Assembly (NCBI GenBank): GCA_039815375.1
Contig: JBCBZJ010000004.1
Span: 96,001 to 160,000, forward strand
Reading direction: 5' to 3'
Origin: Verrucomicrobiota bacterium
GTDB taxonomy: Bacteria > Verrucomicrobiota > Verrucomicrobiia > Opitutales > Coraliomargaritaceae
Length of the DNA: 64,000 nt
Every line of letters starts with the position of its first letter. Within the stretch, counting starts at the first letter, position 1. Below, piece by piece: positions 33,440 to 61,174 of this stretch. The notes beneath the pieces were generated by a model that was given only the letters and a program-made list of their open reading frames with translations, was not told where the DNA came from and did no database searches. The position numbers and the translations under genes were made by a program.

Positions 33440-33452
33440 CCCACTACAAAAT

Positions 33453-33986
33453 ATGAAAGGCATGGTTTTCACCAACTTCCTCGACATGGTTGAGGACAAA
33501 TTCGGCATCGAAACAGTCGATGCGATTATCGAAGATTCGGATATCCCCTCCGGAGGCTCCTACACTGCTGTTGGCACTTATCCACATACTGAAATGGTCG
33601 CACTACTCGTGTCGCTGGAAAAAGCAGTCTCGATTCCAATCCCTCAACTGATGAAGGTCTACGGCGAACATCTTTTCGGAATTCTGGCCAATGGCTACCC
33701 GGTCTTACTTGAAGGCTGCGAGACTAGCCGGGCACTGCTTAAAAAACTCGATGGCGTGATTCACGTCGAGGTGCAAAAGCTCTACCCCGACGCAGAACTC
33801 CCACGCTTCAAAGCTATCGAAAAGCCTGACGGCAAACTTGAGATGCACTACCTTTCGGATCGACATATGGAAGACTTGGCTGAAGGACTTTTGACCGGCT
33901 GCTTTTTGCACTTCAACGAGAAAGCAAATATTACACGCGAATCGGGATATGATGAAACTATCGTATTTACCATTAGTTACGAATAG
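33453..33986 (+). CDS. H-NOX heme NO/O2-binding protein
   Basis: MKGMVF start, YTAVGTYP, proximal His in IHVEVQKLYPDAELP and YxSxR (YLSDR). Start adjusted to ATG at 33453. Confidence 0.95.
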   Translation: MKGMVFTNFLDMVEDKFGIETVDAIIEDSDIPSGGSYTAVGTYPHTEMVALLVSLEKAVSIPIPQLMKVYGEHLFGILANGYPVLLEGCETSRALLKKLDGVIHVEVQKLYPDAELPRFKAIEKPDGKLEMHYLSDRHMEDLAEGLLTGCFLHFNEKANITRESGYDETIVFTISYE

Positions 33987-33991
33987 AAAGC

Positions 33992-43271: not shown

Positions 43272-44137
43272 GCACACTACCGGACAGAATCAGTCTAGTC
43301 ATGCGTTCTTACAACGAAGCATGGGCTATCGAAGACACGCTTAATGGCATCTTCAATCAGGACTACGACGGTGAGATCGAGCTCATCGTCATTGATAGCG
43401 CCTCGACCGATGGCTCGCATGAAATCATACCTCGATTCAACCCTAAGGACTTCATCATTCTGGAGCCCGGAACTTACGTTCCTGGCAAAGTTCTGAATCA
43501 GGGCTTCAAACTCGCAACCAACGACTGGGTTGTCTTTCTGAACTCCGATGCCACTCCGGCCAACAATCAGTGGCTCCCTGAGCTACTCAAAGCCGCGGTC
43601 AACTCGCCCAAACTCGGTGCCGCTTTCAGCAGACAGATCCCGCGCGACGACTGCCAGGCGGTCTTTGCCCACGACTACGATCGCTGCTTCGGACCCGAGC
43701 GCGAATCGAAAAACTGGGATCACTTCTTCTCCATGGTCAGTTGTGTTGCCTACAAACCGACCTGGCAGGAAATCCCGATTCGTGAAGACCTTCAGTATGC
43801 TGAAGACGATGAGTGGACCCGACGCCTGAAAGACCTGGGCTATGAAATCATACTGGTTGAAGAATCGGTCGCTATCCATTCCCACAACTACACACCGGCT
43901 CAGGCCTACAAACGTGCCAAGGGTGATGCAATCGCCGTCGCCCAGGCGGGCAATATATCGAATGTGAAACGGGCCTGGCACCGTGATGTCTTTCTACCTA
44001 CAATCAAGGATACCCTCCGCGACCTCAACTACTGCAAACGCACGGGGCAGCTCGGTCAGATTTTCCACGCCTATCAAGTCCGCTACCAACAGCGTTTAGG
44101 TCGGATGCACGGCTACGAAGAAGGCCTTCAAAGCTAA
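43268..44137 (+). CDS. Glycosyltransferase family 2 (rhamnosyltransferase-like)
   Basis: SLVMRSYN, IDSASTDG, FLNSDA, FSRQIPR, YAED and HSHNY motifs. Start adjusted to ATG at 43268. Confidence 0.9.
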   Translation: MSTLPDRISLVMRSYNEAWAIEDTLNGIFNQDYDGEIELIVIDSASTDGSHEIIPRFNPKDFIILEPGTYVPGKVLNQGFKLATNDWVVFLNSDATPANNQWLPELLKAAVNSPKLGAAFSRQIPRDDCQAVFAHDYDRCFGPERESKNWDHFFSMVSCVAYKPTWQEIPIREDLQYAEDDEWTRRLKDLGYEIILVEESVAIHSHNYTPAQAYKRAKGDAIAVAQAGNISNVKRAWHRDVFLPTIKDTLRDLNYCKRTGQLGQIFHAYQVRYQQRLGRMHGYEEGLQS

Positions 44138-44154
44138 ACTCAAACTGCCCTATC

Positions 44155-45387
44155 ATGAAAATCCTAGTCATCAGCAACCTATACCCCCCGCACGGTATCG
44201 GCGGCTACGAGGAACGGTGCCTGCATACCGTGGACAGCCTCCGAGCCCGCGGCCACGACGTCCATGTCCTGACCTCAAACCATCAGGTTGAAGGCCACGA
44301 CGCCTCCGGAGAATCGCAGATTCACCGCAAGCTTCGGGTTCATGGTTTTTACGGACACCCCTGGCTGTCGATCAACAAGCTCTACGAGCTGGAGCAGGAA
44401 AATCAGCAAACCCTCCGCAAGTTGCTGGATAATATCAAACCCGAGGTCGTGCACGTCTGGAACATGGGAGGGATTACCAAGTCCTTGCTCCATACCCTGG
44501 AAGCCGAACCCACTCCACTTGTCTATGATATTTCCGACCACTGGATCGCACGCAGTTTGAAAGCCGATGTTTGGCTCTCCTGGTGGAATGATCCAGGCTC
44601 TATCTTTAGAAATACCCTGCGTGGTCTCGCAGGGATCACAGGTGTCCGGAAATTCATCAGCAAGAAAGTGCCGACCGACCCGGTCCGTAGTCTGAAATTC
44701 GAGAAGATCTATTTCTGCAGCCAGTTCATGCGCGACTTAACTGCTCAACAAGGCTACCCGGTCAGCCATGCCAACATCGTCTACTGCGGTGTCGAAACAG
44801 AACTCTTTGACCGAAAAACCGCATTCAATCCACCGCGTAGGTTTATCTGGGTCGGCCGCCTTGCTGAAGACAAGGACCCGATGACTGCGCTAAGAGGTTT
44901 CCTCCGAGCACGTGAGGCATCGGAACTGCCGCTTGAGCTCGACATCTATGGCCGTGGTGATGCCGCCTACGTGGAGCAATTGGAAGACGAGATTAAAAAA
45001 GCTCATGCCGAAGATTTCGTTCAAATCAAGTCTGCCACGCACAAAGAAATGCGCACACTCTACTCGCAATACGATGGTTACATCTTCTCCAGTAACTGGG
45101 GAGAGCCCTTTGCACTTACCCCACTGGAGGCCATGTCGGCAGGCGTACCAGTACTGATGTGTCCGGATGGCGGTGATGCGGAGCTAGTGGACGACGGTGT
45201 CAACGCACTGAAGTTTGAAGCCAACTCACCCAGCTCACTGACTGGAGCGATCATACGTTTGCTTCAAGTTCCTGATCACGGCGAAAAGATGAGCCGCATC
45301 GCATTCGACATCGTCCAGGAACGCTACACTGTCGAGGTTATGACTAACAAAATCGAATCGATTTTGGAAAAGGCTTCCAAAGGCTAG
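44155..45387 (+). CDS. Glycosyltransferase family 4
   Basis: SNLYPP..GGYE, GRLAEDK and EPFALTPLEAM motifs. Confidence 0.92.
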   Translation: MKILVISNLYPPHGIGGYEERCLHTVDSLRARGHDVHVLTSNHQVEGHDASGESQIHRKLRVHGFYGHPWLSINKLYELEQENQQTLRKLLDNIKPEVVHVWNMGGITKSLLHTLEAEPTPLVYDISDHWIARSLKADVWLSWWNDPGSIFRNTLRGLAGITGVRKFISKKVPTDPVRSLKFEKIYFCSQFMRDLTAQQGYPVSHANIVYCGVETELFDRKTAFNPPRRFIWVGRLAEDKDPMTALRGFLRAREASELPLELDIYGRGDAAYVEQLEDEIKKAHAEDFVQIKSATHKEMRTLYSQYDGYIFSSNWGEPFALTPLEAMSAGVPVLMCPDGGDAELVDDGVNALKFEANSPSSLTGAIIRLLQVPDHGEKMSRIAFDIVQERYTVEVMTNKIESILEKASKG

Positions 45388-46752
45388 ATGGTTGATCTCA
45401 TCAAAGGCATCGTTCTAGCAAACGGCTACTTTATTATCGGCCCGATCGGAGGTTTCATCCTCGCCAAAGATCGCCGGATGGAGGACTTCGCGATGGGCCT
45501 GTTGATGTTTCTTCTTGGCCTGCACATCAACACCACTGTGCTCATGCTCGGGTCAATCGAATGGTATCGTGGCGTTACCAAGGGCTACGAGTTCACCATG
45601 ATGGAAATTCTCTCCGTAAGCCTCATCTTTGCCACCGTCTTTAATTCGAAGCGCAAATTTGTCTTACTCCCGCTCGGCACCTTACTTTGGTTTCTCTATA
45701 TTGGGGCCAGCAGCCTTTCGATCCTGAGTGCCTTGAACGCGAACTACGTCTTGATGAGTATTCTGAAACATGCGAAGGTCTGGCTCATCGTCTGGGCGGT
45801 GTGCAACTACGTGCGCACACGCCGCGAAGTTCACGTCGTGCTCACCGGGGTCTCGATCATGCTGATTTACCAGTTTCTTATCGTCGCAAAGATGAAATGG
45901 ATCGACGGCTTTTACCAGGTCCGGGGGCTATTCGAGCACCAGAACCCGCTGGCTATGTTCACCTATATGGCTGCCCTACCCCTCCTCGCGGTGGCCATGT
46001 CACCGGCAACGTCAAAGATTCGAAGCCTCATTTACTTTGCTGCCTTCGCCTGCTCCGGGATCATCGTCCTTGCCTCCCTCTCCCGGGCCGCGCTGGCATT
46101 TTTCGCAATGGGAACGGCTGCCGTTGTTGCTGCCGGATTCTTCGACCGTGTTTCCGCAAAACGAATACTCATTGTCTGCCTGATGGCTATGGGCGGCACC
46201 TTCGTTCTTGCCATGACGCTGGAAACGATCATCGGAAGATTCAATGACGAAGGCAACGAAGCAAGTGGCGAAACCCGGGATGTCATGAATCTGGCATCGA
46301 AGGCCATGATTGACACAAACCCGCTCGGCATCGGCTGGAACAATTTCGGCAAGGCGATCAATCACCCCTACCCCTACGGCGATGTCATCGATGATTGGAA
46401 CCGCGATCGCGGCCAGACAGTTGACTATGACTATGCCAAGGGTGTGGTCGAGAGCCACTACTGGCTGCTTAAGGGCGAAACCGGCTGGCCGGGTTATCTC
46501 ACTTACATGCTTTTTATTGTGGTCGTTACCGGCGCTACGCTTCCGCTCATCATCCTCCGGCGCGGCAGCCTCGAAGCAGCTATCGCTATCGGCATTCTCA
46601 TTGCCTTCGGCATTACCTACGTCCACAGCAGCCTGGAGAGAGTGCTGACACAGACCAAAAACCTTGCGCTTTGGATGACCTACATCGGATTACTGGGAGC
46701 ACTCATTCGCTTGCCGAAACCCAGGAACAAAGGACAGCGCACAATCGAATGA
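45388..46752 (+). CDS. Wzy polymerase / O-antigen ligase family membrane protein
   Basis: About 11-12 TM segments; GLFEHQNPLA, SLSRAA and NPLGIGWNNF motifs. Confidence 0.85.
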   Translation: MVDLIKGIVLANGYFIIGPIGGFILAKDRRMEDFAMGLLMFLLGLHINTTVLMLGSIEWYRGVTKGYEFTMMEILSVSLIFATVFNSKRKFVLLPLGTLLWFLYIGASSLSILSALNANYVLMSILKHAKVWLIVWAVCNYVRTRREVHVVLTGVSIMLIYQFLIVAKMKWIDGFYQVRGLFEHQNPLAMFTYMAALPLLAVAMSPATSKIRSLIYFAAFACSGIIVLASLSRAALAFFAMGTAAVVAAGFFDRVSAKRILIVCLMAMGGTFVLAMTLETIIGRFNDEGNEASGETRDVMNLASKAMIDTNPLGIGWNNFGKAINHPYPYGDVIDDWNRDRGQTVDYDYAKGVVESHYWLLKGETGWPGYLTYMLFIVVVTGATLPLIILRRGSLEAAIAIGILIAFGITYVHSSLERVLTQTKNLALWMTYIGLLGALIRLPKPRNKGQRTIE

Positions 46753-47964: not shown

Positions 47965-49106
47965 CCGCTAAGGGCAGTATTGAAAGCACGCTGAAAGCAA
48001 CCCACCGAATGCCGATTCCACACCCGCTGCTTTAAAGCATCGATGGTTGAAGCGTTGGCTCGACGGACCGCTATCATTGCCTCCAGGCCGGATGTTTGAT
48101 CGCGATAAGCGAAGCGCCACGCATCCGGCAACCAGTCTCGCATACCGTCGCGGTCGGTCGATGCAACTGGCACGCCGTTTGCCAAAGCTTCCAACATGGC
48201 TAGAGGAACGCCTTCGTAGCGTGAGGGCATAATCATCGCATCCAATGCCGCATAGAGCGGTGCCGGATTGTCTGTCCATGATAGAAAGTGCACATTGGCA
48301 TGTTTTGATGCGGTCTCCTTCAGTGCTTCAGCGTCAGGCCCACTTCCAAGAAAAACCAAGTGCTCGTCGCTGTGTCGCTGGGCCCGTTCAAGAAACAGCT
48401 CGAGCGCAAAGTCCTGCCCCTTTTGCTTGAATTCGGTTCGTCCGATCTGCCCCCAGAGGTAGCCGTCCTGTGGCAAGTTAAATTGCTCACGTGCTTCGCT
48501 GCAAGTCGGTTGATTCTTGAAACGCTCCAGAGGTATGCCGTTCTCCACAACTTGAATTCGACCGGAGGCACCATAATTCCGGAGCATCCGGGCAAGGGTC
48601 TCAGAAATAGTGATAAACCCATCCGGCTCGGCATAGAGGCCTCGACAGGTAACATCACGAAACGAGCTCAACTTAGCGCCCATCTCCGCATGCTTATGCG
48701 GAACAGGTAGATAACTCACAATCGGGCAATCGACTTTTCCCTTCAGGAGAAAAACTGAAGAACACTGCTCGATATTACCCTGGATGACCAAGACGACGTC
48801 AGGACGTTCCTGCTCGACCATCTCACACAATTGCTTGATCGAACCCTTCTGGAAATACCGGCGTAAGGCCTGAAACTTAGCAGTTCGTGTCGGTGCCTCT
48901 TCAACTCGTAGTCTCCCAGGCTCAGTTTTTTCTGCAATTGCCGACCAGCGGTCCCGATTTCTAACGTTATTCGGATGCAAGAGAGCCAGAACATCCCATT
49001 CCCCGAATTCAAGAAGCCCTTCTAAACCATAAGCCGCCATCACCTGATGCCCACCAAAGTCGGGATTGTCATCGATCAATAAAAGCTTTGGCCGCCTTGA
49101 ATTCAT
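47955..49106 (-). CDS. Glycosyltransferase family 4
   Basis: FGGHQ, ENGI, GR...QKGQ and PSRYEGVPLAMLEA motifs. Confidence 0.9.
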   Translation of the reverse strand: MNSRRPKLLLIDDNPDFGGHQVMAAYGLEGLLEFGEWDVLALLHPNNVRNRDRWSAIAEKTEPGRLRVEEAPTRTAKFQALRRYFQKGSIKQLCEMVEQERPDVVLVIQGNIEQCSSVFLLKGKVDCPIVSYLPVPHKHAEMGAKLSSFRDVTCRGLYAEPDGFITISETLARMLRNYGASGRIQVVENGIPLERFKNQPTCSEAREQFNLPQDGYLWGQIGRTEFKQKGQDFALELFLERAQRHSDEHLVFLGSGPDAEALKETASKHANVHFLSWTDNPAPLYAALDAMIMPSRYEGVPLAMLEALANGVPVASTDRDGMRDWLPDAWRFAYRDQTSGLEAMIAVRRANASTIDALKQRVWNRHSVGCFQRAFNTALSGWL

Positions 49107-50059
49107 AAGCCGTAACGTTTGATCAAATTATAAATCGTCTTCTGACTCACGCCAAGTTGTTCGGAAGCAAGGCGCCGATTGCCCTCGTTTTCATCTAAAG
49201 CGAGCTGCAAAGCATCCCGCTCAATTTGCTCCATCGTCTTGCCTGACAGGCTGTATCCCAACTCACTTTTTTTCGAATTTGAAGGTTCGATCTGCTTTGG
49301 CAAATGCTCCGGCTCCACGCGTTCCTCGGGGTCAACCAGAGTTGCGACGCGTAACATGACGTTACGCAACTCTCGAATGTTACCCGGCCAGTCGTAATTC
49401 AGCAGCACATCCAAAGCACTGTCCGAAAAGCGAGGATGCGCTTCAGGGCCAAGCGCTTCAGTGAGAAATTTCAGCGCGAGAACCGGAATATCACCCGGTC
49501 GTTCCTTCAAGGAGGGCAGTTCCAGTTCGAAAACATTTAGACGGTAGTAGAGATCCCGGCGAAAACGACCTTCAGCGATGGCTTCGTTCAAGTCCTGATT
49601 CGTCGCTGCAATCAGGCGCACATCGACTTCATGCTGCTCTGCGCTGCCAACAGGATAGAATCTCTGGTTCTGAAGAAAAAGGAGCAGCTTCGGTTGGAGC
49701 TCGGGCGACATTTCACCGATTTCATCGAGAAAGACTGTTCCGCCATCTGCCTTTTCGAGAAGACCGACCTTATCCTTAAACGCACCGGAGAAGGCACCTT
49801 TACGGTAACCGAAAAGTTCGGACTCAAGAAGATTCGCCGGGATACTTGCACAGCTTAGTTCGACGAACTCCCCTCCTGCACGCTGGCTATTCTGATGAAT
49901 CGAATACGCCAGGCGGCTCTTTCCGGTGCCGGACTCACCAGTTAACAGCAGGGCGTGTTCGCTCTGCGAAATTCGATCCAACTGCCGCCGCAGAGGCTTA
50001 AATGCATTCCCTTTAAAATCCGCCTCAAACGGGCTCTTCTCTTTTCGTCCGGCTGTCAT
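49103..50059 (-). CDS. Sigma54-dependent enhancer-binding protein lacking an N-terminal sensor domain
   Basis: GESGTGKS, ESELFG..KGAFSGA, FLDEIGE, FRRDLYYRL, WPGNIREL and a Fis-type HTH. Start at 50059 chosen from the ATGA overlap with the wzx stop. Confidence 0.93.
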   Translation of the reverse strand: MTAGRKEKSPFEADFKGNAFKPLRRQLDRISQSEHALLLTGESGTGKSRLAYSIHQNSQRAGGEFVELSCASIPANLLESELFGYRKGAFSGAFKDKVGLLEKADGGTVFLDEIGEMSPELQPKLLLFLQNQRFYPVGSAEQHEVDVRLIAATNQDLNEAIAEGRFRRDLYYRLNVFELELPSLKERPGDIPVLALKFLTEALGPEAHPRFSDSALDVLLNYDWPGNIRELRNVMLRVATLVDPEERVEPEHLPKQIEPSNSKKSELGYSLSGKTMEQIERDALQLALDENEGNRRLASEQLGVSQKTIYNLIKRYGL

Positions 50060-51567
50060 CGCATCGTTTTTTTTGCATTCCATAAAATCCAGGCAAAAGC
50101 CGGCCCCGCCGAAAGCGCACCGCGCATTCCAAGGGGAATGAACCCACCTTCAGGAGGGATTGGTAAAAAGTAGAGTGTTGCCCCCAGGCAGGCGGCAAAG
50201 AGTAAAATAGGTGCACCTGCGGAAAGGATATACCTGGCGTACTGCCATGGTCTGATTTTAAGGTAACTCAATGCCAGTGGAAGCACGAGTACCCACCCCA
50301 CCAATACAGTCGGAATAAGTGTGCCGAAGGCCACGCCCACGATCCCAAAGGTAAAAGCCAGCGCGATACTTATACCAACGTTACTTAAACCATCAATCAG
50401 CGCGAGGCCTAGCAGCTTCTTTTCATAGCCGCACATCATTAGAACCCGTTTGGAGCAACTGTTTGTCAGCTGCGAAGAAAAGATCGCAAAGAGAAGGACC
50501 TGGCCTACCATCAGCGTCGATTCCTCAATTGCTTCCAAACCGGTAAGCAGCTGAATGAGTGGTTCCAGATAAGCGGCACAAAGACCGTAAAGCGGCGTGC
50601 TGATCAGGAAGGTCAGACGGGAGGTTTTGAGCAATAAACTCTTCAACCCATCGGAATCGCCGGAAGCGTTCATACTGGCCGCTGCGGGGCTCAGCGCATC
50701 CTGGAGCTGGATCGTAAACAGGTTAAACATCTCCGCGACTTTGAAACCTGCCTGGTATGCGGCAATGACACCTACCCCCAAGGTGAAGCCAAGCACGGCC
50801 TGATCACTCTTGGCCATCAAGAGGTTGCTGAATGTGATTAAATACGCAGCAATGGAAAAACCCAACTGTGACTTCACCGCCGACCAGCGAAAATGCCTGG
50901 GCGAAAGCGAAACCTTCGGCAACTTGGCCCGAGCTACAAAAAGTGCACCAACATTGGGTAGAAGCGTGGTCATCACACTTACTGCAACAATGACCGGAAA
51001 GCTCGCACCAAGCCAAAGCGCAACCGCAATGCCTATGAAATTCAAAACGACCGAGCCCGTATTCAACCAATTCGCCAAGTCGATCCGCTGCAACCCGCGC
51101 AGAACTTCAGGGAAGAGGCCAAAAGGAAATGTCAGCGCCAGACCGGCAAAGAAGATCAGGTACGCCAGCATGTAAGTGCCACCGCTTTCTTCCGGAGTAC
51201 CGATCGCACCAAGGAATAGACTGCTAATCGCAAAGAAGAAAATCGCCAGCACTGCAGCAAGGCCAACAAAGGTCCAGAGCAGTGTGCTCAGCAAACAACT
51301 CAACTCTTCCCAATCACCCGTTGTGCTCTTTTCGGCAACCGCTTTCTGCGCCGTAAAACCAAAGCCAAAGTCCAGAAGGACACCATATCCAAAAAAAGAC
51401 CAAAGCAGGGACCAAAAGCCGAAGTCCGACTCGGAAAGACCACTGAACAATAAGCGAAAGAGCACCAGACCGAGCAATAGCCGCGTGATCGTGCGAATGT
51501 AGTTACTCACTGTGTTGCGCCAGAAATGGAGTTTCCACAGCGGCACTTCTTCAGCAATTTCGCTCAT
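50056..51567 (-). CDS. Wzx-type flippase (MATE-like polysaccharide transporter)
   Basis: Multi-TM, 503 aa; FGFWSL..LLDFGF, SDQAVLG and FGIVGVA patterns; EPS context. Confidence 0.85.
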   Translation of the reverse strand: MSEIAEEVPLWKLHFWRNTVSNYIRTITRLLLGLVLFRLLFSGLSESDFGFWSLLWSFFGYGVLLDFGFGFTAQKAVAEKSTTGDWEELSCLLSTLLWTFVGLAAVLAIFFFAISSLFLGAIGTPEESGGTYMLAYLIFFAGLALTFPFGLFPEVLRGLQRIDLANWLNTGSVVLNFIGIAVALWLGASFPVIVAVSVMTTLLPNVGALFVARAKLPKVSLSPRHFRWSAVKSQLGFSIAAYLITFSNLLMAKSDQAVLGFTLGVGVIAAYQAGFKVAEMFNLFTIQLQDALSPAAASMNASGDSDGLKSLLLKTSRLTFLISTPLYGLCAAYLEPLIQLLTGLEAIEESTLMVGQVLLFAIFSSQLTNSCSKRVLMMCGYEKKLLGLALIDGLSNVGISIALAFTFGIVGVAFGTLIPTVLVGWVLVLPLALSYLKIRPWQYARYILSAGAPILLFAACLGATLYFLPIPPEGGFIPLGMRGALSAGPAFAWILWNAKKTMR

Positions 51568-52688
51568 TACAATCCTATCGGTATAACTACGTCCGGAGAT
51601 TCGCCATCAAGGGTTTCCACAGAATTGGCACCTTCGCGAACAGCAATCGTAGTCGCTGCCGCATCGAAGATCACCCAAAAATAACGTTCTAATATTTTGA
51701 AAGGCCGATCCGGCACCCAAACAATATCAAAGGGCTTCAGCTCCACGTTTGTGACACGCCCGGCCAGGATACCCTTCAAGTCCACAACCGCTACCTTCGG
51801 CGAACTCAACGATCCACGAATAATCAACACCTTGTCGAGGTTCGCATCCGGAGTCGGCCCTTTTGCATGAGCAATCGCGGCGACCAGATTAATCTTATCC
51901 TTGTAACCCAGTGCTTGTGGCTGCATGACCGCACCGAGAATATGGATATTCTGCGATAGCGAAGAAGGCAGATAAACGTAGTCACCATCCTCAAGATAAA
52001 TGTTCTGGGACATGTCGCCCTGCTTGATGAGTGCCAGCAAGTCGACCGGGAGCACTTTGCCATCCCTTAACACAAAGCTGTTATCAAGATCTGCCAGTTC
52101 TTCGGTCGAACCGCTGAATCGCGAGGTAAACAAACCACCCGCAAGGGAAATCCCCTCCAACAAGGTCGTGGGCTGGTTCAGCGGATACAGTCCCGGCTTA
52201 TTCAAACGTCCTAATAGCCAGGCGCGCCGGCTCTTCACCTCTCGCAGGGTAACATTCACGCTAGGGCTGGAATAATCCTTACTGAGAGCGTCTTTCAGGC
52301 GATCGCTGATCTCGGCAATCGTTAAACCGTCGACCCGCACACCACCCGCCAAATCATAATAGACTCGACCATCCGGCATAACAAAGGTCTCGGAACGACT
52401 GCCACCAATACCCGTGATCTCGATTTCAAGCCAGTCTCCAACCCCAACCCGATAGGCCTTTAAACTCGGCTCCAACCATTTTGGATCAAGCTCTCGTTCC
52501 GGCTGAAGCAACTCAAAGGCTTCTTCGTCCAGAAGAGAATCATTGAGATCTCTCGGGTCGAAAATTTCCCGTGAGCCTAAGGCTTTATTAGATCCGATAT
52601 CAGGCAGATTGACCCTCACATGCTGACAGCCGGAAAAGGCCAGAAGCCCGACGTAGAGAAGAAAATGAGGAACCGCCCAGCGCATCAT
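51567..52688 (-). CDS. Polysaccharide export (OPX/Wza-like) lipoprotein with SLBB domains
   Basis: Lipobox-like LAFSGC, YRVGVGD...PDG PES motif and two SLBB-type repeats (LEDGDYVYLP, LKPFDIVWVP). Confidence 0.87.
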   Translation of the reverse strand: MMRWAVPHFLLYVGLLAFSGCQHVRVNLPDIGSNKALGSREIFDPRDLNDSLLDEEAFELLQPERELDPKWLEPSLKAYRVGVGDWLEIEITGIGGSRSETFVMPDGRVYYDLAGGVRVDGLTIAEISDRLKDALSKDYSSPSVNVTLREVKSRRAWLLGRLNKPGLYPLNQPTTLLEGISLAGGLFTSRFSGSTEELADLDNSFVLRDGKVLPVDLLALIKQGDMSQNIYLEDGDYVYLPSSLSQNIHILGAVMQPQALGYKDKINLVAAIAHAKGPTPDANLDKVLIIRGSLSSPKVAVVDLKGILAGRVTNVELKPFDIVWVPDRPFKILERYFWVIFDAAATTIAVREGANSVETLDGESPDVVIPIGL

Positions 52689-53761
52689 TCTTCATCCCTC
52701 CATCCCGTTCGATCAAACCATGGGTCCTGAATCAAGTCAGGCACGTTTTCGTTTACCCAAGTCGATGTGGCACTCTTGAGGAAATTCTGAATCGCAACAT
52801 CGATTATCTGCTCGGCCTTATACCATGGCCTGTTGTTCACATAAACGATATCCCCCGGCTGCAGCGCAAAGTCACGATCCCGTCCTTCGAGAATAGCTTC
52901 GACATTAATGACAAATTTCTCCGGATCACTGAGGCTGCCGCGAATGACAAGAACCCGCTTCTTCCATGAACCTTCGGTAAAGCCTTCCCTGCGGGTGACG
53001 GCAGAGATCACGCTGGCACGGTTGGAGAAGCCCTGCGCACCAGGCTGGGCAACCGCTCCCAAAACATAATATTCATTGGAAAGATTGGACGCGAGAAAGA
53101 TGTAGTCCTGCGGTTCGAGAAAAACGTTTTGCTGCAGATCACCCTCAAAGTAGAGCTTTGAAAAGTCCACATCGAGGCGTTCACCATTCCGTATGATAAA
53201 GGAGCGCTCCATGTCGGCAACTTCCACAGTCGATTGCTCAAAGAGTCCGGTCTCGATGCCACGGCTCCGGGCAATGGCTTCCAACAAGGTGATTGGTCGA
53301 TCCAGCGTGAAGACGCCCTTGTCGATCACTTTCCCAAGAATCACGTAGCGCTTACTCTTTAACTCCCAAGGCGTAATAATCAGCCGTGGGTTGCGGTAGT
53401 AATCGCCCAATGCTTTCTCCAATGCACCACGCAGCTCGTCGATCGTCATTTTATCTACCTGCAAACTATTCACCTGTAGATAGCTGAGCGTGCCGTCCGG
53501 TGCAATACGCACTCCTGGCCGGTCCAATTCGCCCCGACCATAGAAACGGATATTGATCACATCACTGGGGCCGAGGGTATAACGTTCGCGCCAGGAAACC
53601 AATGCTTCCACCAGATCTCGCTCAGACTCGGGCTCAGCCGCCTCCACGTCTTCAGGCTGCTCATTCACCGAGGCAATCTCGGCAGGCTTAAGCTCTTCTT
53701 CAGCCAAAGCTATCGTAGCCATAGCGAAAAGGCCGAACCATTTTCGGATACTTCGCATCAT
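52685..53761 (-). CDS. Second polysaccharide export (OPX-like) protein with SLBB domains
   Basis: Signal peptide without Cys; YTLGPSD...IAPDG, LEPQDYIF and LQPGDIVYV motifs. Confidence 0.87.
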   Translation of the reverse strand: MMRSIRKWFGLFAMATIALAEEELKPAEIASVNEQPEDVEAAEPESERDLVEALVSWRERYTLGPSDVINIRFYGRGELDRPGVRIAPDGTLSYLQVNSLQVDKMTIDELRGALEKALGDYYRNPRLIITPWELKSKRYVILGKVIDKGVFTLDRPITLLEAIARSRGIETGLFEQSTVEVADMERSFIIRNGERLDVDFSKLYFEGDLQQNVFLEPQDYIFLASNLSNEYYVLGAVAQPGAQGFSNRASVISAVTRREGFTEGSWKKRVLVIRGSLSDPEKFVINVEAILEGRDRDFALQPGDIVYVNNRPWYKAEQIIDVAIQNFLKSATSTWVNENVPDLIQDPWFDRTGWRDEE

Positions 53762-55743
53762 GTCTCTTCAGCCTTCGGTTCACGGCTTGCCAACATATTG
53801 AGAACCATCATCTCGATCCACTTCAGGACACGTGGAAGTGTGTTGTCTGTTTCCTGATCCACGATCAGCAAGCCATCCGCAGGGCCCAGCAACTTGCGCA
53901 TGATGTCACTTTTGTGGCTAGTCTCGTTGCGCTCTGCGATACTAGGGGAGTTGATTAAGTAATAGGCCTCCAACTTCTTCAACTGGGCGACCTCGTCAAC
54001 GATCGGGATTTTTGCCATCCGCACGAAGACCAGTTCATCCCCACTTTCAGGAATATCATCTAAAGAGTCATAAAAAGACTTCACCGCTTTGTGCTCACGA
54101 AGCCCAGCCACCAGATCATCGCTATTCGCACTTACGCTAATGAAGATCACCTGCCGATCTTCCGAGTGAACCAAATCAAGCAGGTCTCCCCAGAAGATCA
54201 TCTCCTCATCGCAGACATCGGTCGGCACAAAAAGAAAGTGCTTTCGTTGCACACCATCACCCGAAATCGCATGGGTGAGCCAAAAGCTCCGCAGGGCACG
54301 ACCATTTAAGGCACTTTCCTCTTTTCGGAATAGACGCCGAACACACCAAGAGGGTTTCTTTGCGCCCTCAGTAACATAGTTGAAAATCGGGAGTGCTCCA
54401 GTCGCAATGGCGGCTTCAAGCGGGGTGCGCAGACCCGGCTGGAGGGCCTCCCAAAAGAGCGCAATCAGCAGCGCAATCGCTAAACCACCGGCAAAGCCGA
54501 CAAAGCCAAGTAGAAGTGCTTTCACATTCTGAGAGCTGTAAGCCACTTCATTGAGGTCTGGCTCCTGAAAAACGCGCCAGTATCCAGGTGCCTTTGTTTC
54601 ATAAAACGAGGCTTCCTTACGGCGACTATCAAGCAGAGCCTGTGCATCAATCAGGAGATCACGGCGGCTCTTCAATTCGGAAAGTCGGAGCGCTTTCTCC
54701 GGCAAATCAGCAACGAGCACTTCCTGTTCAATCAGTCGTTGCTCCAGACTCTTTAACATTTTTTCCGTCTGCGTGCGCTCGTTCTGTAAAGCGATGATCT
54801 CGAGGTAAAGGTTGTTGCCGAGGTCGCTTCCGGTGAAATCCTTCAAATCTTCAACCGAAGCATCGGCAGTCGCCTCGAGCTGCTGGTTGATGTATTCGAT
54901 CTCGTAGAGCTTCTCCTTCACCAACGGATTTTCATCGGTATAGCGCCCACGAAGGAAAGTCAGTTCCTCACGCTTCTTCTTTATGTCGGCCTCGAGGGGA
55001 CTTTGCGCGCGCAGCTCCTCACGATAACGCTTGATCTGGACGTCTTTCGTCTCGAGAGCAATACGCATATTGGAAAGCTGTATCTTCGTATTTTCGAGCG
55101 TAGAAAGTGCGGTCTCAGTCTGTTTATCGACATCGACGAAGTTATTCTTTTTTGCGAAGTCGAGGATCTGCTGGTTTACCGCACCAAGCTGGCCCTCTAT
55201 CGCATCCAGTTGCTCGGAAATAAACTCCGCCATCTGGCGGGCCTCCTCTTTCTGAAGGTTATTGGTGAATCGGATAATTTCTTCCGCCCATACGGAAACC
55301 GTTTGAATCGCATCCTCGGCGCTGAGCCTCGAGTGGGCGGTTAAATAAAACAGCGAGGTATTCCGCTGCTTCGCAATCTCGACCATCGACTTGACCTGAC
55401 CGGGACTGCGTTCCGGCTCAAGCCGCACAGAAGTTCGATTCAGAACCTCGGTTGAATAAGTCGTCGAAAGCAAAGTATCGTCACTTAACTCCCGAGGCTT
55501 AAAGGCCTGTCCCGATTCGCTCGTCTGCACTGTATTCGGCACTTCTGATTTGATCAGCTGAAGGGAAACGGAGTAACGGTTATCCGTTTTCAATCCGCCG
55601 ACGAACCAACCGATACCACCCAGAACAATGGGCAAAATAATGAACCAAAGCCAACGCTGGCGGACACCGTAGAGCAAACGAAGCGGGTCAATCGGTATCG
55701 GAAAACTAAAGGCTTCTGGTGTTCGGTTTGAAGGAGGCGTCAT
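53758..55743 (-). CDS. Polysaccharide co-polymerase (Wzc/GumC-like) with degenerate kinase domain
   Basis: Two TMs flanking a coiled coil with RYTDENPLV; the C-terminal domain lacks a Walker A GxGKS and a Tyr cluster. Confidence 0.85.
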   Translation of the reverse strand: MTPPSNRTPEAFSFPIPIDPLRLLYGVRQRWLWFIILPIVLGGIGWFVGGLKTDNRYSVSLQLIKSEVPNTVQTSESGQAFKPRELSDDTLLSTTYSTEVLNRTSVRLEPERSPGQVKSMVEIAKQRNTSLFYLTAHSRLSAEDAIQTVSVWAEEIIRFTNNLQKEEARQMAEFISEQLDAIEGQLGAVNQQILDFAKKNNFVDVDKQTETALSTLENTKIQLSNMRIALETKDVQIKRYREELRAQSPLEADIKKKREELTFLRGRYTDENPLVKEKLYEIEYINQQLEATADASVEDLKDFTGSDLGNNLYLEIIALQNERTQTEKMLKSLEQRLIEQEVLVADLPEKALRLSELKSRRDLLIDAQALLDSRRKEASFYETKAPGYWRVFQEPDLNEVAYSSQNVKALLLGFVGFAGGLAIALLIALFWEALQPGLRTPLEAAIATGALPIFNYVTEGAKKPSWCVRRLFRKEESALNGRALRSFWLTHAISGDGVQRKHFLFVPTDVCDEEMIFWGDLLDLVHSEDRQVIFISVSANSDDLVAGLREHKAVKSFYDSLDDIPESGDELVFVRMAKIPIVDEVAQLKKLEAYYLINSPSIAERNETSHKSDIMRKLLGPADGLLIVDQETDNTLPRVLKWIEMMVLNMLASREPKAEET

Positions 55744-55772: not shown

Positions 55773-56930
55773 CTATTTATCAGTCAGCCTAGCGGTCTCT
55801 AGATAGCTCTGGCAAGTAGCCATTGCAGCACGGCCCCAGTCAAACCTGGACGCATGAGAGCGCCCTTTGGCAAGACGCGCCTCACGTTCTAAAGCATTTT
55901 CAGTGCATAACTTTGTCATTGTGCGTGAGATTTCGTGCACATTTTCCGGATCAAAGTAAAGCGCTGCATCGCTACCGACTTCTGGCAGGCTGCCTCGGTC
56001 CGAAGTTGCGACTCGACAACCGCAGGCCAACGCCTCGAGGACCGGCAAACCGAAGCCTTCGATCAGACTGGGAAAAACCAATCCCTCCGCAGAAGCATAC
56101 CAGAGCGGCAGGTCGGCCTCATCGATAAAGCCGGGCATCCGAATATCCGCCGCAAATGGCGAACTTGCGGCCCGGGCTTCGATCACCTCAGCACCATGCC
56201 AGGGCGCACCGCCAAGCACCAACAGATGCTCCTGCCCTGTCTTCTTTCGGTAATCCTCATAAGCCTCAATCAAGCGAACGTGGTTCTTGCCCGGATGCTC
56301 CAGACGCGAAATAAACAAAAGAAAGGGTCGCTCGATGCCCTGTTTCGTGCAGAACGCCGCCGTCTCTTGAATTGTGCGGGGACGATAGACGCTGTGGTTC
56401 AATCCATTGTAAACGACATCCACACCAGTTTCCGGAAGTTTGAAGAATTCGACCAGATCTTGTTTCGTAAACTCGCTTACCGTGAGCACGTGCGCACAGC
56501 GGCGAGCCATCCAGGGCGCAACCTGACGACCAAACAGCCCACGCAGAAATCCGTATTTTTCGCGCAGGCGAAAAGGCGCACAATCATGAATCGTCGCAAG
56601 TTGTGCGATCGGGGAAAAAGCAAGGATGCGGCGATAGCTCGGGATATGGAGAAGATCGTAGCCTCCGGCCTTCAGCAGCGAGGGCAGCCTTCGCTGATGC
56701 CAGATCAGGTTTTTCAGGCCGCCTGCAGCCGCTTCGGGAATGGAAACCCAGCTCGCATCATCAATCGCTGCAAAGAGCTTTCGATCCGCATCAAGGCCTG
56801 CGATATGCAAATCCACTGTATCCATTTCAGCAATACGTGCAGCAAGCTCAACGACATAACGCCCCACTCCGGACAGACCACCCTGAATCATTCCGGCAGA
56901 GAGTAATACCTTGGGTCTCGAACTAAGCAT
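55773..56930 (-). CDS. Glycosyltransferase family 4 (mannosyltransferase-like)
   Basis: SGVGRY, TIHD, TVSEFTK, KNHVRL and FPSLIEGFGLPVLEA motifs. Confidence 0.92.
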   Translation of the reverse strand: MLSSRPKVLLSAGMIQGGLSGVGRYVVELAARIAEMDTVDLHIAGLDADRKLFAAIDDASWVSIPEAAAGGLKNLIWHQRRLPSLLKAGGYDLLHIPSYRRILAFSPIAQLATIHDCAPFRLREKYGFLRGLFGRQVAPWMARRCAHVLTVSEFTKQDLVEFFKLPETGVDVVYNGLNHSVYRPRTIQETAAFCTKQGIERPFLLFISRLEHPGKNHVRLIEAYEDYRKKTGQEHLLVLGGAPWHGAEVIEARAASSPFAADIRMPGFIDEADLPLWYASAEGLVFPSLIEGFGLPVLEALACGCRVATSDRGSLPEVGSDAALYFDPENVHEISRTMTKLCTENALEREARLAKGRSHASRFDWGRAAMATCQSYLETARLTDK

Positions 56931-58389
56931 TTACCCTCCCCTCGACCAGGAGATCGTAAACGCCCGTCATACGCATGGTTTGCAAAGCTTGCTCTTTGGG
57001 ACGAATGACCCGAAGCCGCAGTCCCCTTGAGTGCAGTGAGCGGTATGCATTGAGAAGCTGGGAGATAGCGAAGGAATCGAGCATCTCTAAATCGGACAGA
57101 TCGAGCATAAGGATTTCGCCTTCCAAGAGCTCCTCTACGGCTTGGTTCAGAACTTCCTGGCACTCAAGATGATCTTTCCTACCAAAAGGTGATAGCAGCT
57201 TAATGACTTTTTCCTTGAGAACATGGGCAGGGCCGAGTTGAGCCATAACGAAATCCATCGCCTCGCGTTCGTCATGATAGGAGGGGAGCTGAGCATCAAG
57301 ATGCATGGCCTGAATCACTTTTTCGACGACTTCAGATGGATGAACGAGACCAAAGATCACACCAGCTGCATGGGACTCACGGGCAACCTTTGCCAACAAG
57401 CCTATGCCGGAACTGTCGATAAAGCTGACGCCACTAAGATCAAGAAAGAGAGGACGATCATAGCCTGGAGGCAGCGGTATCGTATCGAGATTTCCTCGTT
57501 CGACTTCTCCACCCCACGACAGGAAGTTGCACTCGTGCTCCCCTGCCTGAGGCACGTAGCAAGTTGGAGCTTGAGAGATGGCTTCTTCCTCAAGGCGCGG
57601 CGATTTCTGATCTGAGACAACAGGCTTCTGAGCCGTTAACTGGCGTTGGCGATTCGCGAGCACGGCGAGATAATAAAAATCTTTTGCGTAGCGTTTCACC
57701 AAGCGCTTCGGATTCATTGCCATCCGCCAGCACCACTCCATACCGACCTTCTGCACCCAGACCGGTGCACGGGTTTGCGTGCCGCAGATGAAATCAAGTG
57801 AGGCACCAATTCCTATTGAAAGAGGGACGCCAGCCTGCTCGTAAAAACGCGAAATCCAATACTCCTGCTTCGGGCAGCCCACCGCGACAAGTAGCAGATC
57901 CGGCCTTGTCGCATGGACATCCTTGATGATTTCTTCATTGGGCCATGCGTCGACGGAGCAGAAAGGCGGCGAGAACGCCCCCACTACTTCCATGCCTGGA
58001 TAGTCCTTCGCCAGAATCGATTTGGTCTGGGCAAGCGTCTCCGTATCGGAGCCGAGAAAGTAGACTTTCCAGTTTCGCCCATCGGCCTCCCTGAACAATC
58101 GAAAGACCATATCAGAGCCTGCCACACGTTCGGGCAGAACCGGCTTGAAGTAGCGGGAGAGCCAGACCAGAGGCATACCATCACAGACCACACGATCGGC
58201 ATGAAAGAGAATATCCTTCAGCCCTTCGTTGCTGTAGGCTTGAGCAATGAAGTCGGCATTTGCTGTAACATAATAACCGGGCTTGCGGGCTTCAACCTGC
58301 GCCACGGCATCGCCAACCGTCTCCTCCATAGTGATAACATGGAAAGGCAAGCCCAGTAGAAAGGCTACATCACGGTCAGTTTTGATCAT
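56923..58389 (-). CDS. WecB/TagA/CpsF glycosyltransferase fused to two STAS domains
   Basis: TANAD, CDGMP, ERVAGSD, VAVGCPKQE and GMEWCWR..PKRLVKRY, then STAS 1 (LDLSGVSFIDSSGIG) and STAS 2 (LDLSDLEMLDSFAI). Start at 58389 from the ATGA overlap. Confidence 0.92.
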   Translation of the reverse strand: MIKTDRDVAFLLGLPFHVITMEETVGDAVAQVEARKPGYYVTANADFIAQAYSNEGLKDILFHADRVVCDGMPLVWLSRYFKPVLPERVAGSDMVFRLFREADGRNWKVYFLGSDTETLAQTKSILAKDYPGMEVVGAFSPPFCSVDAWPNEEIIKDVHATRPDLLLVAVGCPKQEYWISRFYEQAGVPLSIGIGASLDFICGTQTRAPVWVQKVGMEWCWRMAMNPKRLVKRYAKDFYYLAVLANRQRQLTAQKPVVSDQKSPRLEEEAISQAPTCYVPQAGEHECNFLSWGGEVERGNLDTIPLPPGYDRPLFLDLSGVSFIDSSGIGLLAKVARESHAAGVIFGLVHPSEVVEKVIQAMHLDAQLPSYHDEREAMDFVMAQLGPAHVLKEKVIKLLSPFGRKDHLECQEVLNQAVEELLEGEILMLDLSDLEMLDSFAISQLLNAYRSLHSRGLRLRVIRPKEQALQTMRMTGVYDLLVEGRVNA

Positions 58390-59594
58390 AGCTTCGTTAG
58401 ATATTGGTTCAGCTTGGCCCCGAGTTGCTCCCAAAGGTAATTGGATCGAACGGTTACAAGTCCGACGGCTTCAAGTGACAGGCGCAGCTCCTCATCATTC
58501 AACAAACGAACCACTGCATCAGCCATACCGGTCTCGGTATCGGCCAGGAGAATATCCTTCTCATTTTCGAGATCGAGCCCCTGTGCGCCCAAGGTGGTGG
58601 ATACGACGGGGCAGCACATACCGAGCGACTCGACAATCTTGAGGCGGGTACCGCCGCCAATCCGCAGCGGAACCACCTGTGACCAGGAAGACTGGTAGTA
58701 CGGGCGAACATCAGGCACTTCGCCAACCAGCTCGATACCATCAATTGCGGTCCAACGTTCGGAGCGGGCATCTGGTGATTTACCGACTATGCGCAGGACT
58801 GCCTCCGGTATTTCCTGATGGATTTTTGGCCAGATCGAATCGGCAAACCAATTCATCGCGTCGACGTTGGGCGAGTAATCGAGTGCACCGCAAAACAGAA
58901 CCGTCGGGCTATCGGTGAGTTGGCGCGGGTAGGCCTCAGCGTCAAAAAACTCTGCCGTGTAACCGTTCGCGAGAACAAAGACCTTGTCGGCATCACCGAG
59001 CTTTTCCTCAAGGAAAATCTTATCATCCCAGCCGCAGACAATCATTCCGGAAAGGGCCGCGTAAGCCTCGCGCTCAAGTCGGGCGATTTTTCCAAGATTC
59101 TCTTTTCGCAGAAAGCGTTCCTTAAAAGACAACTTGAGCGTGTTGAACTCTTCCGTCTGAAAAAGCCAATCCACCCGGCTGCGGTCCATGATACGGCAAG
59201 GGTGATCCGGGAAGAGCTCACGTATATAGGGCCAAAGCACGAGATCGATAAAGACGACGCGGTCATAATCCTGGCCCTGGACAAATCCTCGTAATGCGTC
59301 AGCCACGCCCTCGACCTGCCAATGCTGCACCGTAGTGGGCAAAGAGTTCAGCAAACGGTCGGGAAAGAGCCGCTGCCATGGAGCATTCTTGAATGGTATC
59401 GCCAGCCTCCGTGCGGTGTAGGGCTCAAAGGGCTCCATCGTGCGGGAGGCATCTTCCTGTAGGCAGGCCAGATCAATCTCAAAGGACTTCGACAATTCAA
59501 TAAAGAGATGAAACACGCGTTGGTAAGTGCCCCGATCTACCGGAAAGGGAATGTAGGGCATAAAAAGAAAAACACGTGGTTTTGCCGAAGACAT
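58386..59594 (-). CDS. Glycosyltransferase family 4
   Basis: PFPVDRG, FCGALDYSPN and VPLRIGGGTRLKIVE motifs. Start adjusted to ATG at 59594. Confidence 0.9.
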   Translation of the reverse strand: MSSAKPRVFLFMPYIPFPVDRGTYQRVFHLFIELSKSFEIDLACLQEDASRTMEPFEPYTARRLAIPFKNAPWQRLFPDRLLNSLPTTVQHWQVEGVADALRGFVQGQDYDRVVFIDLVLWPYIRELFPDHPCRIMDRSRVDWLFQTEEFNTLKLSFKERFLRKENLGKIARLEREAYAALSGMIVCGWDDKIFLEEKLGDADKVFVLANGYTAEFFDAEAYPRQLTDSPTVLFCGALDYSPNVDAMNWFADSIWPKIHQEIPEAVLRIVGKSPDARSERWTAIDGIELVGEVPDVRPYYQSSWSQVVPLRIGGGTRLKIVESLGMCCPVVSTTLGAQGLDLENEKDILLADTETGMADAVVRLLNDEELRLSLEAVGLVTVRSNYLWEQLGAKLNQYLTKL

Positions 59595-59596
59595 CT

Positions 59597-60682
59597 TCAA
59601 CTGTAGTATTGCCACCACTTCGTGTAAGACGAGACTGAATCCGCTAAGTTTTCAACCGTTTGTCCAAAAATTCCAGAAACCGCTTCATAATCCGGTTCAG
59701 CCTCAAGCAAAAGGACAAGCGCACGCTGCAGTGCACCCCTAGGGTAATCCGTATTCGGATGCAGGCAGCCGCCCCGTTTGAGCCGATCACGGAGACTTAG
59801 AAGTAGATTTCGAAGCGCCGGGGAGTCGGTGAAAAGTTTACCAGAATAGGTCGCATACGCCTGGGGCCTATTGAAGTTTGCTTTGAGGCGAGCTGACTCA
59901 ACCTCCAGGAAACAGCGCCGCCAGAGATTGGTCAATTCCGCCTGAGTCGCCCGGAGCTCTTCGATCGGTGGTGTGGCAGTCGGCCGAAGCTTGAAGGAAA
60001 CGCCAATTTCATGTAGCTCGGCAATACGCGGGTCGATATCAGTCTGCTCACGAAGCGCTAACTGACGCTCGCGGACATAGGCACGATACTTCCCACGAAT
60101 GGTCAGCAGAGCATCGCCGAGAGCGAGCTTCGCTTTGGCCTGATTGCGATGCACCACACTGAGGTCAACGTTAGCCTCAAGATCGGCCCGCGCAAAAAGC
60201 AGTCCGGAGCCTCGATTCCAGAGTAGACGTGTTGCTTCGATCAGCTCGATCGTATCCGGCTTTGCCATGACTTTGTAGTCATCGAAAAAATTCTTGGGGC
60301 CGGAGACAATCGTCTGCGCTGCAACCAGATCATAGAACATCATCGAACCAGGCGTTTGGCTGAGGTCCGACCGGGGAAGGCATTTGCCCTCCACATCGAT
60401 TCCCATGATCTTGCTCTCCTCACGCTCCCACTCGCGTAGGGCATAAATGATTTCAGGGTCTTCGGGTAAATCCGTGAAGATGAAGTAATCCAGATCATTG
60501 AAGAAGCAGGGTGATCCATCGGGAGCTGTCGCGATACCGCCCTCACCTCGTCCATAGCCGCCACCAAGCACAATAGCCTGTGGCGCTTTTGAGCCGAGAT
60601 TATCAAAGTGAGCGATGGTGCGCTCGAAGTGAGCCCTCAATTGCGCATCTAAATCTGATGGCAATGGCACCGGCTCAAACAT
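59597..60682 (-). CDS. Putative pol-beta-superfamily nucleotidyltransferase with helical C-terminal domain
   Basis: IVLGGGYGRGEG...FNDLDYF matches the hG[GS]..DhDh NTase signature; a third acidic residue is possible in IDVE. Confidence 0.65.
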   Translation of the reverse strand: MFEPVPLPSDLDAQLRAHFERTIAHFDNLGSKAPQAIVLGGGYGRGEGGIATAPDGSPCFFNDLDYFIFTDLPEDPEIIYALREWEREESKIMGIDVEGKCLPRSDLSQTPGSMMFYDLVAAQTIVSGPKNFFDDYKVMAKPDTIELIEATRLLWNRGSGLLFARADLEANVDLSVVHRNQAKAKLALGDALLTIRGKYRAYVRERQLALREQTDIDPRIAELHEIGVSFKLRPTATPPIEELRATQAELTNLWRRCFLEVESARLKANFNRPQAYATYSGKLFTDSPALRNLLLSLRDRLKRGGCLHPNTDYPRGALQRALVLLLEAEPDYEAVSGIFGQTVENLADSVSSYTKWWQYYS

Positions 60683-60697
60683 GGGACTGTTTTTTGT

Positions 60698-60997
60698 TTA
60701 GTCCGCTTCGATTTCAAATACACGGTGCAATCTGAGAAGCTCAAGAACACTCAAAACCGTGGCCGTGGGCTTTCGCAGAATCACCTGCCGATTCATTTGC
60801 TTATAAAAGCTGAGCAATGCACCGATACCGGAACTGTCGATAAAATTGACCGACTCCATGTTCAGCACAACCATGTCCATTCCTTGCAAGTCCAGATCCT
60901 TTAGTTCTGCCTTTGCCTCAGTCGCGTTTGAGGCATCAAGTGAATCAACGCCGATCACAACCTCGAGCATTCCTTCTTCTAGCTTTGAAGATAACAT
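60698..60997 (-). CDS. STAS-domain anti-sigma-factor antagonist (SpoIIAA/RsbV/SypA-like)
   Basis: LDASNA and VNFIDSSGIGALL with the phosphorylatable Ser; 99 aa; first gene of the minus-strand arm. Confidence 0.92.
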   Translation of the reverse strand: MLSSKLEEGMLEVVIGVDSLDASNATEAKAELKDLDLQGMDMVVLNMESVNFIDSSGIGALLSFYKQMNRQVILRKPTATVLSVLELLRLHRVFEIEAD

Positions 60998-61092
60998 AAT
61001 CGTGGCTAATTATGTATGCGTATAAGCACTACACTGCAACCTCAAATTCTAACGGGAATATCACAAAGCAGGACGAAGAGCCTCTGTAATCT

Positions 61093-61108: not shown

Positions 61109-61174
61109 TGAATCGAGCAAATCGATACTAATTTCACCGGTTGACAAGGAGCCGTCAGCCACTTCTAACTACAA

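Follow-up and report, generated by a model that had tools for sequence, protein, structure and literature searches.

Can an enzyme that builds polysaccharide itself be the substrate of a partner switch? The question is raised by a gene in a stretch of 64,000 nucleotides from a Verrucomicrobiota bacterium of the family Coraliomargaritaceae (GenBank assembly GCA_039815375.1, contig JBCBZJ010000004.1, positions 96,001 to 160,000 of the forward strand), referred to here as the window, in which one reading frame joins a GT26 (WecB/TagA/CpsF) glycosyltransferase to two STAS domains. The window also encodes a free STAS protein and an RsbW-type kinase fused to a SpoIIE/PP2C phosphatase. We found that the fused enzyme belongs to GT26, with a fold and catalytic and tail residues like those of TagA, and that its first STAS domain (STAS1), by sequence and structural model, resembles the anti-anti-sigma type in having the STAS fold with a serine directly after an aspartate. 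Reasoning from these features and by analogy with a cyanobacterial enzyme, we consider it somewhat probable that the enzyme is switched through this serine, S326, which the kinase of the locus would phosphorylate and the attached PP2C domain dephosphorylate. The parts of the fusion are as follows.

56923..58389, minus strand: GT26 (WecB/TagA/CpsF)-STAS-STAS gene, 488 amino acids (open reading frame, Pfam, NCBIfam)
57631..58368, minus strand: GT26 domain and C-terminal tail, residues 8-253 (alignment to TagA, model)
57529..57630, minus strand: linker, residues 254-287, variable and of low confidence (AlphaFold model, alignment)
57235..57528, minus strand: STAS1, residues 288-385, motif FIDSSGIG, putative acceptor S326 at 57412-57414, first helix shortened
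56941..57216, minus strand: STAS2, residues 392-483, motif MLDSFAIS, S439 at 57073-57075, degenerate around the serine

The fusion and its enzyme domain

The reading frame at 56923-58389 (minus strand, 488 amino acids) has no internal stop; its ATG at 58389 overlaps the stop codon of an upstream GT4 gene, and its own stop overlaps the ATG of a downstream GT4 gene. The preliminary description of this DNA, made from the sequence alone, had claimed an intact WecB/TagA/CpsF domain, a linker and two STAS domains, and Pfam, alignment and an AlphaFold model bore this out. Pfam placed Glyco_tran_WecG at residues 64-234 (E 2.5e-55; PF03808, 187 bits against a cut-off of 27.4), STAS at 311-377 (PF01740, with a whole-protein E of 5e-23 over two stretches) and STAS_2 at 404-477, and the NCBIfam models TIGR00696 (126 against 69 bits) and TIGR00377 both exceeded their cut-offs. 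The AlphaFold model, computed with 48 aligned homologues as input, has three folded domains with a mean predicted local distance difference test score (pLDDT) of 88.6 and a predicted template modelling score (pTM) of 0.75, the pTM of the Atlas model being 0.54. The linker fell below a pLDDT of 50 at residues 261-282 and varied from 17 to 48 residues across homologues. A Foldseek search with the model returned TagA (7mpk; TM score by target 0.94) and SpoIIAA/RsbV (1th8_B and 6m36_B; probability 1.00, with E-values weaker than that of TagA).

An assembly artefact as the origin of the fusion was ruled out, since the fusion recurs in homologues and an independent contig spans the linker. This contig, from a second study (run X3), crosses the linker gap-free with about 31 and 45 bases on either side. 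The sequencing runs that match the window DNA are marine metagenomes, of which the best match may be the source, and no RNA runs were among those listed as containing this DNA.

At the membrane, GT26 enzymes transfer a sugar to a lipid-linked acceptor, a reaction that requires their C-terminal tail. In the alignment with TagA of Thermoanaerobacter italicus, residues D70, E218, W219, R222, R229 and R233 of the fusion correspond to D65, E210, W211, R214, R221 and R224, all six of which are described as important in the TagA study (PMC8784642), so that the enzyme, which had been called intact, indeed has the catalytic residues of TagA. These six positions and T42, N44, R88 and D93 were kept in 135-136 of 136 rows (120 best homologues and 16 open reading frames from loci, some of which may duplicate listed proteins). 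The TarA and WecG equivalog models NF041710 and NF002980 scored far below cut-off (115 against 350 and 90 against 323 bits), and the donor and acceptor sugars are therefore not assigned.

A census of domain architectures, which had been proposed as a check, showed that the fusion is no oddity of one assembly: among the best 120 of 493 homologues, 118 carried both PF03808 and PF01740, the query included. Within these 120 we found one-STAS forms of about 385 residues, two-STAS forms of about 485 residues and forms with an extra GT4; the nearest named homologues belong to Coraliomargarita, Lentimonas and Puniceicoccaceae, and cultured hosts among the homologue names are Coraliomargarita, Lentimonas, Cerasicoccus, Luteolibacter and Rubellicoccus. 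When 301 Verrucomicrobiota genomes were searched, 37 matched at E 1e-42, and in all 30 of these genomes whose loci were retrieved the enzyme is followed by one or more STAS-like domains. Among 251 Chloroflexota genomes 17 matched, 13 of them with the full two-STAS form. The Atlas held 21 clusters with GT26 and STAS, one of them mostly from Chloroflexota (taxa were shown for three clusters), and when the STAS part alone was searched against the Atlas, every score was below 0.9. The 33 proteins found with residues 200-488 as query were all GT26. No fused STAS was found in 60 GT26 loci nearly all from other phyla (L040-L099), 11 of 64 parts being scanned with patterns of the window's clade.

Several relatives depart from this architecture. 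Larger fusions were seen in P0056, P0063, P0065, P0069, P0072, P0088 and L110:5770-8415, with both GT26-STAS-GT4 (the order read in P0056) and GT4-GT26-STAS(-STAS) arrangements, which suggests that the neighbouring transferases work as a complex. In genome G058 (L037:9884-11473), a GT26-STAS-STAS gene is broken by an in-frame stop, with a free STAS and a kinase-PP2C gene about 24 kb away. In Aphanothece (L079:311-1605), an unfused GT26 gene is directly preceded by a free STAS gene with FIDNSG, in which asparagine stands in place of the acceptor serine, and sulfotransferase-like genes, by sequence inspection, come after it.

The putative acceptor serine of the STAS domains

Both motifs named in the preliminary description stand in the sequence. 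STAS1 has FIDSSGIG (D325-S326), eight residues that it shares with the free STAS (60698-60997), and STAS2 has MLDSFAIS (D438-S439). S326 is the first serine after the aspartate, equivalent to S56 of SypA, and was kept in 130 of 132 STAS1 rows at a median identity to the query of 38%, while the next position varied (S 87, A 21, T 17, G 7). As a control, 30 STAS domains of SulP proteins from the same phylum had the aspartate in 30 of 30 and serine at the acceptor column in 0 of 30, so the STAS fold does not need the serine. In the phylum sample, which covers distant clades, the aspartate was often lost and the serine kept (STAS1 27/29, STAS2 19/19), with at least one acceptor serine in all 29 proteins, and in Chloroflexota both STAS domains had it in 13 of 13. 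Retention of the serine while adjoining motif positions drift fits serine turnover better than plain binding.

The domain with the full motif differs by lineage, since in one distant clade STAS1 usually lacks the aspartate and has glutamate in place of glycine, its serine kept and STAS2 canonical, and in Chloroflexota STAS1 is canonical and STAS2 lacks the aspartate, with its serine kept. In the loci L135-L137 and L139-L156, STAS1 reads approximately W-L-x-S-x-E-L-G beside a canonical STAS2, and six genomes of one genus retain the altered STAS1 only.

In the window lineage, STAS2 is likely an accessory domain. Its serine was present in 71 of 78 aligned rows (71 of 73 after five misaligned GT4 fusions were dropped), and the domain was missing from 54 of 132 rows, or 59 counting the GT4 fusions; its absence from about two in five homologues indicates that the tandem is not essential. 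When the SypA docking positions D20, D22, F53 and S57 were mapped by motif, they fell on E295, E297, F323 and S327 of STAS1 and on P401, G403, M436 and F440 of STAS2, which has S439 and none of these four positions. Acidic residues occur at the positions of E295 and E297 in 49 and 90 of 132 rows, respectively, and the window protein has both. Of the tandem pair proposed as switch substrate, STAS1 keeps the serine and most docking positions, and STAS2 keeps its serine and has lost most docking features.

The kinase/phosphatase and its gene cluster

The genes around the fusion form a Wzx/Wzy-type polysaccharide cluster.

31515..32267, plus strand: priming sugar-phosphate transferase (Bac_transf), without STAS
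33387..37136, plus strand: three genes ahead of the kinase/phosphatase, for an H-NOX protein, a PAS hybrid histidine kinase and a REC-HisKA protein; candidate signal input
37145..38863, plus strand: RsbW-type kinase-GAF-SpoIIE/PP2C phosphatase, 572 amino acids, the sole full-length HATPase_c_2 match in the genome
38860..39228, plus strand: single-domain response regulator right behind the kinase/phosphatase, candidate input
42012..46752, plus strand: GT4, GT2, GT4 and a Wzy_C-like membrane protein (under the Pfam cut-off)
49103..55743, minus strand: chain-length-determinant-like gene, two Wza-type export genes, Wzx-type flippase and a sigma-54 activator without receiver
55773..56930, minus strand: downstream GT4 (in some relatives, a GT4 follows STAS within one fused protein)
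58386..59618, minus strand: upstream GT4, fused to the GT26 N-terminus in some relatives
60698..60997, minus strand: free STAS (SypA/RsbV-like), first gene of the fusion's gene run

On the plus strand, the genes run from Bac_transf through H-NOX, the hybrid kinase, REC-HisKA, the kinase-GAF-PP2C gene and the small regulator to the GT4/GT2 genes and the Wzy_C-like gene; on the minus strand, the free STAS is followed by an unnamed protein, GT4, the fusion, GT4, the chain-length-like gene, two Wza genes, Wzx and the sigma-54 activator.

The kinase/phosphatase that the preliminary description had assigned to the locus has its motifs intact and is the only full RsbW-type kinase of the genome, which is 99.9% complete: seven HATPase_c_2 matches were found, and the window kinase alone covers the whole model. 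Its kinase and PP2C motifs were nearly invariant among 60 homologues. The genome has six STAS matches, namely two SulP proteins, the free STAS, the two fused domains and a 198-residue protein beside another PP2C. This last pair (L016:2842-4906, contig C11) is unlinked to the window cluster, has FLGILAG after D-S-T and no adjoining kinase, and resembles a PP2C/STAS pair in genome G051 (L161). The free STAS has the canonical full motif, with serine in 20 of 20 and an invariant glutamate in the third helix.

Linkage between fusion and kinase recurs. Of 25 genomes from the window's family, six have the fusion, and precisely these six have the 570-residue kinase-phosphatase, in five cases on the same contig. 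The cluster recurs in reshuffled form in loci of Akkermansiaceae, Verrucomicrobiales, Cerasicoccus and Phragmitibacter. Where a linked enzyme was seen in the distant clade (L195, L201, L203), its PP2C precedes its kinase. In Chloroflexota, 12 of the 13 loci were retrieved, and each of the 12 has Bac_transf, the fusion, a free STAS, PP2C and a small kinase inside about 7 kb, the small-kinase matches having E-values of 1e-6 to 1e-10. The free STAS adjoins Bac_transf in L020-L026, L100, L117, L195, L201 and L203, either divergently or in the same run. Losses were also seen: the protein of L030 has lost the serine in both STAS domains and that of L035 has no STAS, and both nest among fused proteins in a tree from a quick search, where the placement of these long branches is unsure. 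No RsbW-type kinase was found in either genome, which agrees with the proposed switch.

The claim of a switch without a sigma factor fits the genomes. No match to the SigB/F/G type (TIGR02980) exceeded the cut-off in the window genome, none was found at E 1e-45 in 22 of 22 other genomes with the fusion, and no sigma factor was present among the 28 locus proteins scanned. Sixteen sigma-70-family matches occur in the window genome, mostly of extracytoplasmic function (ECF) size by sequence inspection.

Further features of the cluster were noted. The sigma-54 activator (49103-50083, minus strand, 326 amino acids) has no receiver or sensor domain ahead of its ATPase. We rejected a candidate sigma-54 promoter upstream of the free STAS (about 61108, 8 of 10 matches to the consensus), since it is not shared by 12 related upstream regions and its occurrence is close to what chance predicts (0.11 per 350 bases). 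Neither a sigma-70 promoter nor a terminator was found at 60600-61400. Between the free STAS and GT4, a 361-residue protein (59597-60682, minus strand) that matches no Pfam or NCBIfam model is conserved across most related loci; its N-terminal GG-x-GRGEG...D-x-D pattern is reminiscent of Pol-beta-type nucleotidyltransferases. A phosphodiesterase-family gene and a DHH-CBS pyrophosphatase-like gene lie at 39225-42015 (plus strand), the former recurring in most related Verrucomicrobiota loci. In the Chloroflexota loci L221-L240, a protein of 570-600 residues with a partial C-terminal Bac_transf match stands between the fusion and the free STAS, and it may correspond to the 388-residue hexapeptide-repeat protein at 32273-33439 of the window.

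A switch on the enzyme, its rivals and its relatives

In the mechanism that we propose, the RsbW-type kinase of the locus would phosphorylate S326 of STAS1 and its PP2C domain would remove the phosphate, the phosphorylated form presumably being off and the unphosphorylated form on, as in All4160 and SypA. An early sugar-adding step would thus be switched without a sigma factor, the GT26 enzyme probably adding to the sugar that the Bac_transf at 31515 transfers first. According to the TagA study, the arginine-bearing tail of TagA also binds the membrane and competes with dimer formation (PMC8784642); STAS1, tethered right behind the tail, might shift tail docking or the monomer-dimer balance, which is a guess from the TagA work. 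Judging by gene order, the H-NOX protein and the hybrid kinase would likely signal to the small response regulator encoded behind the kinase, and this regulator would be the input; the free STAS would likely be a second substrate of the same kinase.

A number of findings weigh against this mechanism. Almost every well-covered locus has a free STAS, which would be an equally good substrate, so that linkage cannot single out the fused STAS, and a kinase and free STAS module (with or without a regulator) was found with no fusion nearby in L111, L115-116 and L117. Two single-contig genomes, G059 and G286, keep the fusion with its aspartate-serine pair and have no RsbW-type kinase: the best kinase matches in G059 are histidine kinases, and G286, by sequence inspection, has only a 153-residue RsbT-like protein elsewhere. 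The clusters of both genomes are reduced, and the pair may be a relic there. Eight of 34 genomes of the phylum had no HATPase_c_2 match at E 1e-10 (one of them, G252, has a REC-PP2C-kinase at a weaker E-value, far from the fusion), and in many second-clade genomes the kinase was weakly matched and unlinked. The genomes of the two loss cases, L030 and L035, are drafts of unstated completeness, and L034 has no STAS even though partial kinase matches lie next to STAS genes in its genome. Kinship among the genomes means that they are not independent samples, and the linkage counts are patterns rather than statistics. In the fusion itself, the AlphaFold model leaves the first STAS1 helix with about 6 residues (298-303), no more than 49 of 132 rows have an acid at the position of SypA D20, and STAS2, apparently degenerate, is missing from many homologues.

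The prominence of the free STAS makes it possible, if hardly probable, that this protein is the working switch and that the fused domains, which may even be phosphorylated, anchor or buffer the kinase/phosphatase or pathway proteins, placing the switch at the membrane assembly site and leaving GT26 catalysis unchanged. The full motif and invariant third-helix glutamate of the free STAS, its presence in nearly all well-covered loci, the occurrence of the kinase, free STAS and regulator module with no fusion nearby, the long and variable linker (17-48 residues) and the placement of STAS between GT26 and GT4 in some relatives, as might be expected of an assembly module, all fit such a role. However, the serine is conserved where adjoining motif positions drift, and All4160 shows that an enzyme can be controlled by a STAS domain fused to it. 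That the domains act without phosphorylation, as ligand-binding or structural units like those of SulP or MlaB with a serine inherited from an anti-anti-sigma ancestor, seems unlikely to us: the pair retained in the two single-contig genomes lacking such a kinase, the shortened first helix of STAS1 and the GTP binding of SpoIIAA reported in PMC8256260 agree with it, but the SulP controls have no serine (0/30), a relic serine is not expected to outlast the adjoining aspartate and glycine in several clades, and the fusion is tightly linked to kinase and phosphatase in two phyla. As for a classical sigma-factor switch with the fused STAS as extra anti-anti-sigma units, a switch on one of the 16 mostly ECF-sized sigma-70-family matches is conceivable, yet the absence of SigB/F/G-type factors from the window genome and the 22 others and of any sigma factor from the 28 locus proteins, the presence of a sigma-54 activator in the locus and the action of SypA below transcription make it highly improbable.

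On balance, the switch through S326 is the reading that we prefer, and the post-translational control at the enzyme that the preliminary description had suggested is partly supported, with two amendments: it has a direct precedent in All4160 and is thus not unprecedented, and the free STAS is an equally good substrate. Because the free STAS adjoins Bac_transf in several loci, we also put forward, as a doubtful extension, that one kinase/phosphatase might set the first two steps of the lipid-linked repeat unit, through the fused STAS on GT26 and the free STAS on Bac_transf. If so, STAS-Bac_transf and GT26-STAS fusions would be frozen forms of one general scheme, and the target of Vibrio SypA would be the priming transferase of its locus. 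The earlier hint that the fusion tells what SypA-like proteins act on is reasonable in this respect, but gene order would favour Bac_transf at least equally as the partner of the free STAS.

Compared with known systems, the STAS domains share their fold, acceptor motif and kinase and phosphatase families with SpoIIAA-SpoIIAB-SpoIIE and RsbV-RsbW-RsbU of Bacillus, from which the window differs in that no SigB/F/G-type factor was found, the STAS is fused to an enzyme and the equivalog models fall below cut-off. The syp locus of Vibrio fischeri is not known to contain a GT26 gene. It resembles the window cluster in combining polysaccharide genes with two-component genes, a free STAS and a serine kinase/phosphatase of dual activity, in control below transcription and in the SypA motif around S56, which matches STAS1 (PMC10120452, PMC11112999, PMC8256260); SypA is a single-domain protein, and SypE is a response regulator, whereas the window kinase has a GAF and no receiver. 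These papers, of 2021, 2023 and 2024, give the target of SypA as unknown, a question on which the GT26-STAS system bears. TagA/TarA of T. italicus and WecG (PDB 5WB4, 5WFG, 7MPK, 7N41; PMC8784642) share the fold and the six compared residues, but TagA ends at its tail and the window protein continues for about 235 residues.

The closest relative in mechanism is All4160 of Anabaena sp. PCC 7120, a Bac_transf whose N-terminal STAS is phosphorylated at S74 by the kinase Alr3423 in vitro and whose S74A variant bypasses the phosphatase HenR (Harada et al. 2026, PMC13555669). Both cases combine a STAS fused to a polysaccharide-building enzyme, an acceptor serine, an RsbW-type kinase and a SpoIIE-type phosphatase with an output that involves no sigma factor, and the window has an intact cognate kinase and phosphatase of these types. 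They differ in that All4160 has one N-terminal STAS on Bac_transf, where the window family has one or two C-terminal STAS on GT26 and the window Bac_transf has none; that kinase and phosphatase are separate in Anabaena, whereas the window cluster encodes them as a single kinase-GAF-PP2C protein and has a free STAS besides; that All4160 is found in cyanobacteria and the GT26-STAS family in Verrucomicrobiota and Chloroflexota; and that phosphorylation of All4160 was demonstrated in vitro and genetically, and that of GT26-STAS is predicted from sequence. Harada et al. found STAS-Bac_transf fusions to be rare outside cyanobacteria and called the strategy lineage-specific (PMC13555669), which leaves direct partner-switch control of a polysaccharide enzyme as one published case; no paper on GT26-STAS proteins was found in the literature, most subscription journals lying outside the coverage. 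The predicted cytoplasmic or peripheral location of the enzyme, kinase, phosphatase and free STAS would make for a clean bench system. The mechanism proposed here would resemble that of All4160, but the fusion is a separate one, on another enzyme fold and in at least two other phyla, and if it works as we suggest, direct control of polysaccharide enzymes by partner switching would be a recurring design.

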